Shown: piece after piece, positions 59,976 through 63,064 of the stretch
Position numbering within the stretch: the stretch's first letter is position 1
How the letters are laid out: each line of letters opens with the position of its first letter
Assembly: GCF_003790525.1 (NCBI RefSeq)
Contig: NZ_CP033635.1
DNA: 64,000 nucleotides
Strand: one strand, 5' to 3'
Origin: Escherichia coli
GTDB taxonomy: Bacteria > Pseudomonadota > Gammaproteobacteria > Enterobacterales > Enterobacteriaceae
The notes under the pieces: model-generated
The model's input: only the letters and a program-made list of their open reading frames with translations
What the model was told of the DNA's origin: nothing
Databases searched by the model: none
Made by a program: the position numbers and the translations under genes

Positions 59976-60208
59976 TGAGATCCCGTTATTTTTATCAATT
60001 TTTGTTGCTATCCGATCGCAAAAAAGCCACGTCATATGATCAGATAATTCTGATAATGATAGACGCTATTTAACACTTCACACGGTTTGTATACGGAAAA
60101 GCATTTTGCTTTTTGTATTCAATTTAGACAGAATTTTATTAATCATTTCAGGGTAATGGGGTGATGAGATGTTGCGTAACAGGGCCAGAAGGCTAGACTA
60201 CAAAATAA

Positions 60209-61213
<1,005 letters not shown>

Positions 61214-61272: not shown

Positions 61273-61309
61273 ATAAACTCTCTACCCATTCAGGGCAATA
61301 TCTCCCTTG

Positions 61310-61419
61310 CAGGTGAATGCAACGTCAAGCGATGGGCGTTGCGCTCCATATTGTCTTACTTCCTTTTTTGAATTACTGCATAGCACAATTGATTCGTACG
61401 ACGCCGACTTTGATGAGTC
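61310..61419 (+). ncRNA. fnrS: Small RNA FnrS
   Basis: Matches FnrS as I recall it (GCAGGUGAAUGCAACGUCAAGCGAUGGGCG...); terminal hairpin GCCGACTTTGATGAGTCGGC plus U8; between zntB and dbpA. Confidence 0.85.
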
Positions 61420-61487
61420 GGCTTTTTTTTGCCTGTTATATATCAGCGTCTACCCTTTAAGAGTCCACCCAATGACCGGAGGGAAAT

Positions 61488-61661
61488 ATGACGACACTCA
61501 TTTATTTGCAAATTCCTGTCCCTGAACCGATTCCTGGCGATCCTGTTCCTGTGCCCGATCCGATCCCTCGCCCGCAACCCATGCCTGACCCACCCCCCGA
61601 TGAAGAACCGATTAAATTGTCGCATCGTGAGCGTAGATCTGCGAGGATACGTGCCTGCTGA
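61488..61661 (+). CDS. Candidate 57-aa proline-rich small protein upstream of dbpA
   Basis: ATG 4 nt after GGAGGG; MTTLIYLQIPVPEPIPGDPVPVPDPIPRPQPMPDPPPDEEPIKLSHRERRSARIRAC; stops 30 nt before dbpA. Below the ORF-track size cut-off. Confidence 0.4.
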   Translation: MTTLIYLQIPVPEPIPGDPVPVPDPIPRPQPMPDPPPDEEPIKLSHRERRSARIRAC

Positions 61662-61690
61662 CTTTGCGTCGATGACCACGAGAATAGATT

Positions 61691-63064
61691 GTGACCGCTT
61701 TTTCTACCCTGAATGTTTTGCCTCCCGCCCAACTCACGAACCTTAATGAGTTGGGTTATTTAACCATGACGCCGGTGCAGGCCGCCGCGCTTCCGGCGAT
61801 CCTTGCCGGAAAAGATGTTCGCGTGCAGGCGAAAACCGGCAGTGGCAAAACGGCGGCTTTTGGCCTCGGCTTGTTACAGCAAATTGATGCGTCGCTATTT
61901 CAAACCCAGGCTTTAGTGCTGTGTCCTACGCGTGAACTGGCGGATCAGGTGGCAGGTGAATTGCGTCGGCTGGCGCGTTTTCTGCCAAATACCAAAATTT
62001 TGACGTTGTGCGGTGGTCAACCGTTCGGTATGCAGCGTGATTCGTTGCAACATGCGCCGCATATTATCGTGGCAACGCCGGGTCGTTTGCTGGATCACTT
62101 GCAAAAAGGCACGGTATCACTGGATGCGCTGAATACTTTGGTGATGGATGAGGCCGACCGCATGCTGGATATGGGATTTAGCGACGCCATTGATGATGTC
62201 ATCCGTTTTGCGCCAGCATCTCGACAGACGCTTCTGTTTTCGGCAACCTGGCCGGAAGCCATCGCCGCAATCAGCGGACGAGTGCAACGCGATCCTTTAG
62301 CGATTGAAATTGACTCAACAGATGCTCTGCCTCCCATTGAACAACAATTTTATGAGACATTCAGCAAAGGCAAAATTCCGTTGTTGCAACGGTTATTAAG
62401 TTTGCATCAGCCATCCTCTTGCGTGGTGTTTTGCAATACCAAAAAAGATTGCCAGGCTGTCTGTGACGCGCTGAATGAAGTAGGGCAAAGTGCATTGTCG
62501 TTACACGGCGATCTGGAGCAACGCGATCGCGATCAGACTCTGGTACGTTTTGCTAACGGTAGCGCCCGTGTACTGGTCGCGACTGATGTTGCTGCGCGTG
62601 GTCTGGATATTAAATCGCTTGAGCTGGTAGTGAACTTTGAACTGGCGTGGGACCCTGAAGTTCATGTACATCGCATCGGTCGTACAGCGCGTGCAGGAAA
62701 TAGCGGTCTGGCGATCAGTTTCTGTGCCCCGGAAGAAGCACAGCGGGCCAATATCATTTCTGACATGTTGCAGATAAAACTTAACTGGCAAACGCCGCCA
62801 GCTAATAGTTCCATTGTGCCGCTGGAAGCCGAAATGGCAACGTTATGTATCGATGGCGGGAAAAAAGCCAAAATGCGCCCGGGTGATGTATTAGGTGCGC
62901 TGACAGGAGATATCGGGCTTGATGGCGCAGATATTGGCAAAATCGCCGTGCATCCGGCGCATGTCTATGTCGCGGTGCGTCAGGCTGTTGCTCATAAAGC
63001 ATGGAAACAGTTACAGGGCGGGAAGATTAAAGGAAAAACGTGCCGGGTGCGGTTATTAAAATAA
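61691..63064 (+). CDS. dbpA: ATP-dependent RNA helicase DbpA (DEAD-box)
   Basis: 457-aa ORF from GTG; Walker A (TGSGKT), DEAD (MDEAD), SAT, HRIGRTAR motifs. Confidence 0.93.
   Translation: MTAFSTLNVLPPAQLTNLNELGYLTMTPVQAAALPAILAGKDVRVQAKTGSGKTAAFGLGLLQQIDASLFQTQALVLCPTRELADQVAGELRRLARFLPNTKILTLCGGQPFGMQRDSLQHAPHIIVATPGRLLDHLQKGTVSLDALNTLVMDEADRMLDMGFSDAIDDVIRFAPASRQTLLFSATWPEAIAAISGRVQRDPLAIEIDSTDALPPIEQQFYETFSKGKIPLLQRLLSLHQPSSCVVFCNTKKDCQAVCDALNEVGQSALSLHGDLEQRDRDQTLVRFANGSARVLVATDVAARGLDIKSLELVVNFELAWDPEVHVHRIGRTARAGNSGLAISFCAPEEAQRANIISDMLQIKLNWQTPPANSSIVPLEAEMATLCIDGGKKAKMRPGDVLGALTGDIGLDGADIGKIAVHPAHVYVAVRQAVAHKAWKQLQGGKIKGKTCRVRLLK

Follow-up and report, generated by a model that had tools for sequence, protein, structure and literature searches.

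The short stretch of DNA between the small RNA gene fnrS and dbpA contains, in the Escherichia coli genome studied here (GCF_003790525.1, contig NZ_CP033635.1), a proline-rich reading frame of 57 codons preceded by a Shine-Dalgarno sequence. The question raised by this locus is whether the frame encodes a small protein that acts in its own right or whether it serves the helicase gene that follows it. Both possibilities had been put forward in the first-pass annotation of the window (the whole stretch of 64,000 nucleotides that was analyzed), which described the frame as either an unannotated small protein or a stalling-type leader peptide that couples the expression of dbpA to the translation status of the cell.

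The genes in this part of the window are arranged in the order zntB (60230-61213), fnrS, ynaL, dbpA and then the convergent ttcA; the features discussed below are collected in Table 1. The 601 bases around the frame were 100% identical to strain SMS-3-5, and the region was matched in 5392 of 5426 complete E. coli genomes. The elements described on first inspection were present: the 57-codon frame itself, running from an ATG at 61488 to a TGA at 61659-61661, the GGAGGG exactly 4 nt from the ATG, the position 3' of the fnrS terminator, and a PPP run, which occupies residues 35-37 (nt 61590-61598) and has an Asp on either side (D-PPP-D, residues 34-38). Two figures had to be adjusted. The middle part is proline-rich as described, but the proline content of residues 10-41 is 50% (16 of 32 residues) rather than about 40%, all of the protein taken together having 16 prolines in 57 residues (28%). 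The frame lies directly upstream of dbpA, but the gap between its stop codon and the GTG of dbpA is 29 nt, not 30 nt.

Table 1. Features of the fnrS-ynaL-dbpA region, in window coordinates
Feature	Position	Strand	Description and evidence
fnrS sRNA gene with intrinsic terminator	61309..61426	+	Rfam RF01796, 134.8 bits
fnrS terminator stem	61403-61422	+	T-run to ~61430; terminator scan
ynaL promoter	61429..61463	+	-35-like TTGCCT 61429-61434, 16-nt spacer, -10 TACCCT 61451-61456, start G 61463; conservation and Cappable-seq
Shine-Dalgarno GGAGGG	61478..61483	+	4 nt (AAAT) ahead of ynaL ATG; sequence reading
ynaL CDS	61488..61661	+	57 aa, MTTLIYLQIPVPEPIPGDPVPVPDPIPRPQPMPDPPPDEEPIKLSHRERRSARIRAC; RefSeq WP_001296046.1; Pfam PF23677; SPA-tag detection
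Protein-level conserved core of YnaL	61533..61607	+	residues 16-40, PGDPVPVPDPIPRPQPMPDPPPDEE; PPP codons 61590-61598; entropy, dN/dS, AlphaFold
Block 1, dbpA -35-region element	61608..61623	+	CCGATTAAATTGTCGC; codons P41-S45 and first base of codon 46
Block 2, dbpA core promoter	61635..61655	+	AGATCTGCGAGGATACGTGCC; ynaL codons 50-56; near-invariant in 68 species
dbpA translation start	61679..61693	+	weak SD-like CGAGA 61679-61683 and GTG 61691-61693; kept in 80/80 loci including outgroups
dbpA, ATP-dependent RNA helicase DbpA	61691..63064	+	ORF list; RefSeq annotation
fnrS +1 (EDL933 TSS 2177794)	61309		exponential LB and all 4 stationary conditions
ynaL start (EDL933 TSS 2177640)	61463		25 nt before ATG, 7 nt after TACCCT; 4/4 stationary, 0/4 exponential conditions
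dbpA start (EDL933 TSS 2177448)	61655		36 nt before GTG, 7 nt after GAGGAT; 4/4 exponential conditions, stationary M9 and stationary salt

The frame is an already known, annotated and experimentally detected gene, ynaL. The Pfam model PF23677 (YnaL) aligned with residues 1-57 over model positions 1-57 (hmmscan, E 2.2e-40, 136.8 bits) and was present in every homologue of the protein collection. RefSeq names the gene ynaL in all 30 genomes sampled, the product being entered either as 'protein YnaL' or as 'proline-rich small protein YnaL', and WP_001296046.1 is the accession at this position in SMS-3-5 and BW25113. VanOrsdel et al. (2018) introduced a chromosomal SPA tag on the ynaL ORF and saw the product by immunoblot, tetracycline ribosome profiling was positive for ynaL, and the entry 'ynaL fnrS/dbpA' in the published table is the identical 57-aa sequence (PMC6001520). 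The gene of the present strain differs from that of K-12 by four synonymous changes and by a TAA/TGA difference at the stop codon; the protein is identical and occupies the same position between fnrS and dbpA, and it is the same gene. The suggestion of an unannotated small protein was thus half right. That the product is a small protein is borne out by the immunoblot, the ribosome profiling and the purifying selection described below, but the gene had been annotated and its product detected earlier, and no discovery is claimed. A literature search on the function of YnaL found no functional study, partner, phenotype or localisation, and nothing on its function was found in the main text of Weaver 2019 or in a paper on the Enterobacteriaceae microproteome. 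A further search for links between EF-P and dbpA or between fnrS and dbpA returned none, and nothing on YnaL turned up in studies of efp mutants. The 'ynaL' in PMC4280137 is a typographical error for ynaI.

The selection acting on the frame was assessed in 80 dbpA loci, one genome per species, that were collected by searching with DbpA only, which kept the sample free of a bias toward an intact upstream ORF. A proline-rich ORF was found ahead of dbpA in 68 of these loci, with 14-63 nt between its end and dbpA, and the GGAGG-type Shine-Dalgarno was kept in nearly all of the species compared. The 30-codon core of ynaL could be aligned without gaps in the 68 species. Its entropy at codon positions 1, 2 and 3 was 0.23, 0.17 and 1.14, as compared to 0.25, 0.11 and 1.17 for dbpA, and its Nei-Gojobori dN/dS was 0.095 versus 0.045 for dbpA. 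All four proline codons were used at nearly every proline position of the core. The codon-level comparison that the first-pass annotation had recommended therefore detected purifying selection on the annotated frame, and the disruption of the frame in relatives that it had named as contrary evidence was not encountered, the frame being open in 68 of 68 species. The ynaL frame is a real gene in which the peptide is under purifying selection, far beyond what chance would produce.

Coding in another frame or on the other strand was considered and rejected. The annotated frame was the only one open in every one of the 68 species, and four of the five other frames had dN/dS values above 1. One antisense frame gave a value of 0.13, an artefact that is expected because the wobble positions coincide, and it contained stops in 8 of the 68 species. 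None of the antisense frames carried an independent coding signal; those not interrupted in every species were interrupted in 8 of the 68. Two long minus-strand ORFs of 78 and 76 aa (window 61443-61679 and 61502-61732) can be traced to the CCN codons, whose complement seldom contains a stop.

The pattern of conservation changes toward the 3' end of the gene. From codon 41 on, synonymous variation was nearly gone (ATT in 68/68 and TCG in 68/68 species), and two blocks, CCGATTAAATTGTCGC (61608-61623) and AGATCTGCGAGGATACGYGCC (61635-61655), were near-fixed at the nucleotide level. Several observations bear on the origin of this constraint, 1) block 2 was near-invariant also in 13 distinct sequences in which it is non-coding for ynaL, 2) it was unchanged in 12 species that have a ynaL nonsense codon ahead of the block, the nonsense mutations affecting two different codons in different clades, 3) five Kluyvera species that lack the proline-rich ORF retained block 2 and, in part, block 1, and 4) in Cedecea, Dryocola, Atlantibacter and Siccibacter, where neither ynaL nor fnrS is present at this position, the aligned site reads ATGACC-N17-TGcTAGAAT-GCGCGCC, which is a promoter of the extended -10 type whose discriminator is GC-rich. 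Since block 2 is kept where ynaL is truncated or deleted and a promoter is aligned with it in the outgroups, the constraint is not at the protein level. The conservation of the blocks and the outgroup alignment led to the prediction that ynaL harbours the dbpA promoter, with transcription beginning near 61655. In this promoter, block 2 would supply the extended -10 TG (61640-61641), the -10 hexamer GAGGAT (61643-61648), a GC-rich discriminator and the start C at 61655, while block 1, which aligns with the outgroup -35 ATGACC, offers GTCGCA with an 18-nt spacer or TTGTCG with a 20-nt spacer as candidates for the -35. A GC-rich discriminator is compatible with a growth-rate-controlled promoter. 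A simple consensus promoter scan did not flag the dbpA promoter because GAGGAT matches only 3 of 6 positions.

A second promoter was predicted ahead of ynaL. The motif TTGCCT-N16-TACCCT had a spacer that was variable in sequence but constant in length, 16 nt, in 69 loci, so that a ynaL start was predicted near 61463. The -35 of this promoter overlaps the T-run of the fnrS terminator. The context of the -10, TCTACCCTTTAA, with a C at -13, looks similar to that of sigma-S-type promoters.

Both predicted starts, 61463 and 61655, were matched by published transcription start sites. The Cappable-seq table of Zehentner et al. (2023; PMC10469882) lists three minus-strand starts for this locus in EHEC EDL933 (NZ_CP008957), a strain that is neither the present one nor K-12, and these were mapped to the window via the EDL933 record (Table 1). 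The dbpA start was absent in two of the four stationary conditions; it lies inside ynaL codon 56, 57 nt 3' of the PPP codons. Thus, each of fnrS, ynaL and dbpA has its own start, and the latter two form distinct transcription units whose growth-phase patterns are opposite. The dbpA promoter, which is of the sigma-70 type, sits within the last 17 codons of ynaL (window 61608-61655), and dbpA is a downstream neighbour outside the ynaL unit. Its GC-rich discriminator agrees with the reported enrichment of DbpA in exponential phase (PMC13393375). The consulted text of five further sources of start sites (Cappable-seq of MG1655, ROSE, Adams 2020, the Rend-seq paper and Shigella M90T) contained no entry for the locus.

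The separation of the two units, their opposite growth-phase behaviour, the location of the dbpA promoter in the 3' end of ynaL and the linkage of fnrS with ynaL described below are useful additions to what was known of the gene. They have a practical side, since with the dbpA promoter inside the 3' end of ynaL, C-terminal tags, deletions and 'clean' ynaL knock-outs would disturb dbpA expression.

The distribution of ynaL beyond these species was examined with a profile search over 1.84 billion cluster representatives. There were 34 matches, nearly all of them small YnaL proteins of 40-85 aa; two large matches were proline-rich repeat proteins. Divergent YnaL proteins from Phytobacter, Mixta, Scandinavium, Erwinia and others had the same core, SDPVPTDPVPIPDPIP.PQP.PDPP, followed by another C-terminus ending in ..DPPPHR. 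In Phytobacter, Mixta, Scandinavium, 'Enterobacter sp. BIGb0383' and a fifth lineage the order was zntB-fnrS-ynaL-ttcA, with ttcA on the opposite strand and no dbpA, and in Phytobacter and 'Enterobacter sp. BIGb0383' ynaL had a terminator hairpin of its own. In two Erwinia lineages, ttcA sits between ynaL and dbpA; there, ttcA is inverted and dbpA comes after it. A gene that is found with nothing downstream in its own orientation cannot be only a leader. Conversely, dbpA occurs without ynaL in Kluyvera, Cedecea, Dryocola, Atlantibacter and Siccibacter. The gene fnrS was directly upstream of ynaL in 7 of 7 divergent lineages, and the distance between the two was 36-67 nt in every lineage examined (the 68 species and the 7 divergent lineages). 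Judged by gene order, the constant partner of ynaL is fnrS, not dbpA. Outside the core Enterobacteriaceae the zntB-fnrS-ynaL-ttcA order has no dbpA at this place (loci L084, L088, L090-L092, L096; L085-L087, L094-L095), so that in the course of evolution dbpA seems either to have been inserted at this spot or to have disappeared from it.

Kluyvera (loci L071, L072, L074-L076) has, about 130 nt upstream of dbpA, a deletion of ynaL from about the ribosome binding site to about codon 41. The spacing in the ynaL promoter is 9-10 nt instead of 16 nt, and fnrS and both dbpA promoter blocks are retained. Since this genus lost ynaL, the gene is dispensable in at least one genus.

YnaL is a small protein conserved from Escherichia to Erwinia, and the part of it that is under selection is a 25-residue acidic polyproline rod. 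The core has a net charge of -5 and proline at every second position. In the AlphaFold model, YnaL had no secondary structure at all, with a pLDDT of about 90 for residues 21-40 and a pTM of 0.22, and the selected part is predicted to be an extended acidic rod of about 25 residues without a fold. The tail, by comparison across genomes, is dispensable. In-frame nonsense codons truncate it in 12 species with the downstream nucleotides unchanged, EDL933 has a 56-aa form, and the Erwiniaceae proteins have a different C-terminus. Most of the conservation seen in the basic tail RSARIRAC stems from the dbpA promoter that lies in the same DNA and is not to be taken as a sign of protein function.

Several details of these variants were recorded. 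The nonsense codons (loci L023, L031, L032, L040, L042, L047, L050, L053, L057-L059, L063) arose by GAG to TAG in the Enterobacter/Lelliottia group and by TAY to TAA or TGA in the Kosakonia/Pseudescherichia group, and the shorter EDL933 protein (locus L097) results from TGC to TGA. E. coli E69 (locus L005) has an in-frame deletion of 11 codons inside the proline-rich repeat that gives a 46-aa YnaL, which suggests slippage between repeated PVP(E/D)PIP units.

The explanation that best accounts for the observations as a whole is that ynaL stands alone as the gene of a trans-acting polyproline peptide and is not primarily a cis leader for dbpA; this reading is considered moderately probable. YnaL would act in trans as a short polyproline-II ligand for a partner in stationary-phase cells. 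Its synthesis would require EF-P owing to the D-PPP-D motif. PPD occurred solely in the pausing set of efp-deletion cells, and all PPP reporters were reduced at least 4-fold without EF-P (PMC4140641). A PPP or strong PPX motif, the mark of an EF-P-dependent protein, is present in YnaL as D-PPP-D, and its synthesis is, going by the motif, probably EF-P-dependent.

The proline-rich spacer of TonB (TonB_N, PF16031) offers a structural likeness, in that both have alternating X-Pro and acidic residues and form an extended polyproline-II rod. The likeness is one of composition and falls below all family thresholds (Pfam TonB_N, E 0.75), and the NCBIfam search matched no specific model and gave only the compositional TonB hit, far under the cutoff (E 2.9e-4). 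Unlike TonB, YnaL has neither a membrane anchor nor a C-terminal domain. The ..PIPRPQPMP.. of YnaL also resembles the PxP/PRP-type motifs of short unfolded antimicrobial peptides (apidaecin, oncocin/Onc112, Bac7). Those peptides, however, carry a strong positive charge and are released by animals and taken up by bacteria, while YnaL has an acidic core, lacks a signal peptide and is not known to bind the ribosome. This acidity (-5) and the lack of any family match speak against a cationic exit-tunnel binder of the antimicrobial type.

The alternative that ynaL is a cis-acting sensor was examined in detail. It holds that a pause at D-PPP-D under low EF-P, low prolyl-tRNA or low Mg2+ alters dbpA expression from the shared transcript, whether by letting Rho load on the C-rich RNA or by affecting how accessible the weak dbpA start is. 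The PPP was retained by 64 of the 68 species and its surroundings favour strong pausing (PMC4140641), and the conserved segment of the protein stops right at PPP-DEE, as a nascent-chain sensor would; in the four species where the PPP was replaced, however, the rest of the core was retained. Loss of EF-P in combination with rut sites leads to Rho-dependent polarity on polyproline mRNAs (PMC5021804), and ribosomes can become unstable on acidic stretches interspersed with prolines, mgtL being an example. The GTG start and weak Shine-Dalgarno of dbpA, over which an invariant 6-bp pairing is possible, would also suit such control. Against these points stand the transcription data, because the dbpA start used in all exponential conditions lies 3' of the PPP codons and the transcripts made from it are without the sensor, and because the ynaL start shows the opposite growth-phase pattern. 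The ORF is not in the 5' leader of the main dbpA transcript, the ynaL start being used only in stationary phase. Nor does it co-occur with the gene that it would regulate; five lineages have ynaL without a downstream dbpA and with no gene in the same orientation following, two have ttcA in between, and Kluyvera and the outgroups have dbpA without ynaL, dbpA keeping its upstream blocks where ynaL is deleted. The distance from stop to start varies from 14 to 63 nt, and full-length YnaL accumulates.

A search for the RNA structures that would accompany such a leader was equally unfavourable to it. RNAalifold of the 68 sequences gave only one 6-bp helix (-3.7 kcal/mol, no covariation), in which GUCGCA (61619-61624) pairs with UGUGAC over the dbpA start; its bases are invariant, so that covariation cannot show. 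The region folds less well than shuffled controls (MFE z-score +1.89), and Rfam had nothing for it even at E values up to 10. A conserved RNA switch between ynaL and dbpA was therefore rejected, all three approaches together having given nothing beyond the one invariant helix, and no linked terminator or helix sequestering the ribosome binding site was found. The terminator scan detected none between ynaL and dbpA in E. coli, so that read-through transcripts probably exist. The segment 61520-61619 is strongly enriched in C (0.43-0.52) and poor in G (0.17-0.20), its CCN codons leave it unstructured, and it would offer Rho a good place to load at times when ynaL is transcribed without being translated.

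Mimicry of rRNA was also considered as a role for the two blocks. Blocks 1 and 2 were presumed to resemble the 23S sequence 3' of hairpin 92, the target of DbpA. The local alignment score of 20 against an actual 23S sequence was equalled by 31-35% of shuffles or random windows, and that of 14 against nt 2454-2606 by 51%, and the idea was dropped.

Leaders of the proposed kind are known in Salmonella and E. coli. The mgtL (mgtA) and mgtP (mgtCBR) leaders are short ORFs rich in Pro and Asp/Glu with a basic tail, as is ynaL, and have in common with it motifs that pause or destabilise ribosomes and a same-strand gene downstream. YnaL differs from them in being three times longer, in having 25-30 conserved residues and in accumulating as a protein; moreover, the dbpA promoter is mapped inside the end of ynaL, no alternative hairpins were found, and ynaL is kept without a downstream gene. 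Taken together, the stalling-leader proposal of the first-pass annotation is not supported. The cis sensor as such is considered unlikely, and a secondary cis effect confined to stationary-phase read-through transcripts is given an equally small chance.

Two ribosome-linked variants were also entertained. In one, the conserved acidic segment would have a second role besides that of the finished protein, namely in being read by the ribosome, and pausing at D-PPP-DEE on stationary-phase read-through transcripts would serve as a readout of EF-P, Mg2+ or proline status that sets the level of DbpA, a helicase of 50S assembly; in the other, free YnaL would be an endogenous proline-rich peptide that binds ribosomes or intermediates of their assembly. 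If true, either would tie a signal of translation quality to ribosome biogenesis, but this is considered very unlikely.

The preferred trans-acting peptide must also be weighed against the view that the product itself is functionless. In that case the frame would be open only through its overlap with regulatory DNA or RNA, such as the dbpA promoter or an fnrS-linked element, or else transcription of ynaL would interfere with the dbpA promoter in stationary phase. It is true that the dbpA promoter constrains the nucleotides in the 3' third of ynaL whether or not they are coding, that the tail has been truncated repeatedly and that Kluyvera lost the ORF, and the two stationary conditions in which the dbpA start is missing are ones in which the ynaL start is on, as interference would have it. 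Codons 16-40 tell against it, since their third positions are free (entropy 1.14) with all four proline codons in use while the amino acids are fixed, a pattern which, like the dN/dS of 0.095, is the opposite of nucleotide-level constraint. The same core is moreover found in Erwiniaceae, where no dbpA promoter follows. A product without function is thus very unlikely.

The association with fnrS suggests another possibility, that YnaL and FnrS form a two-part anaerobic/stationary-phase module, linked by FNR-dependent read-through from fnrS or by action in the same pathway. The short and bounded fnrS-ynaL distance in every lineage, the overlap of the ynaL -35 with the fnrS terminator and the mainly stationary-phase use of both start sites are consistent with such a module. 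However, ynaL has its own mapped start (61463), the adjacency may be no more than inherited synteny (zntB-fnrS-ynaL-ttcA), Kluyvera has fnrS without ynaL, and no experiment linking the two was found in the literature. The module is considered quite unlikely, and a stand-alone ynaL is retained as the preferred reading.

Two further small ORFs were noted in this part of the window. The fnrS sequence itself holds a conserved-looking ORF, MQRQAMGVALHIVLLPF... (window 61317-61460, plus strand), that is sometimes called as a gene or fused to YnaL (P0146, locus L023); most likely it is an artefact that arises because the sRNA is conserved. Just ahead of zntB, a 15-codon ORF is annotated on the plus strand (gene ydaN, product 'protein YnaN', window ~60169-60216), which could be a leader-like small ORF for this zinc transporter gene.
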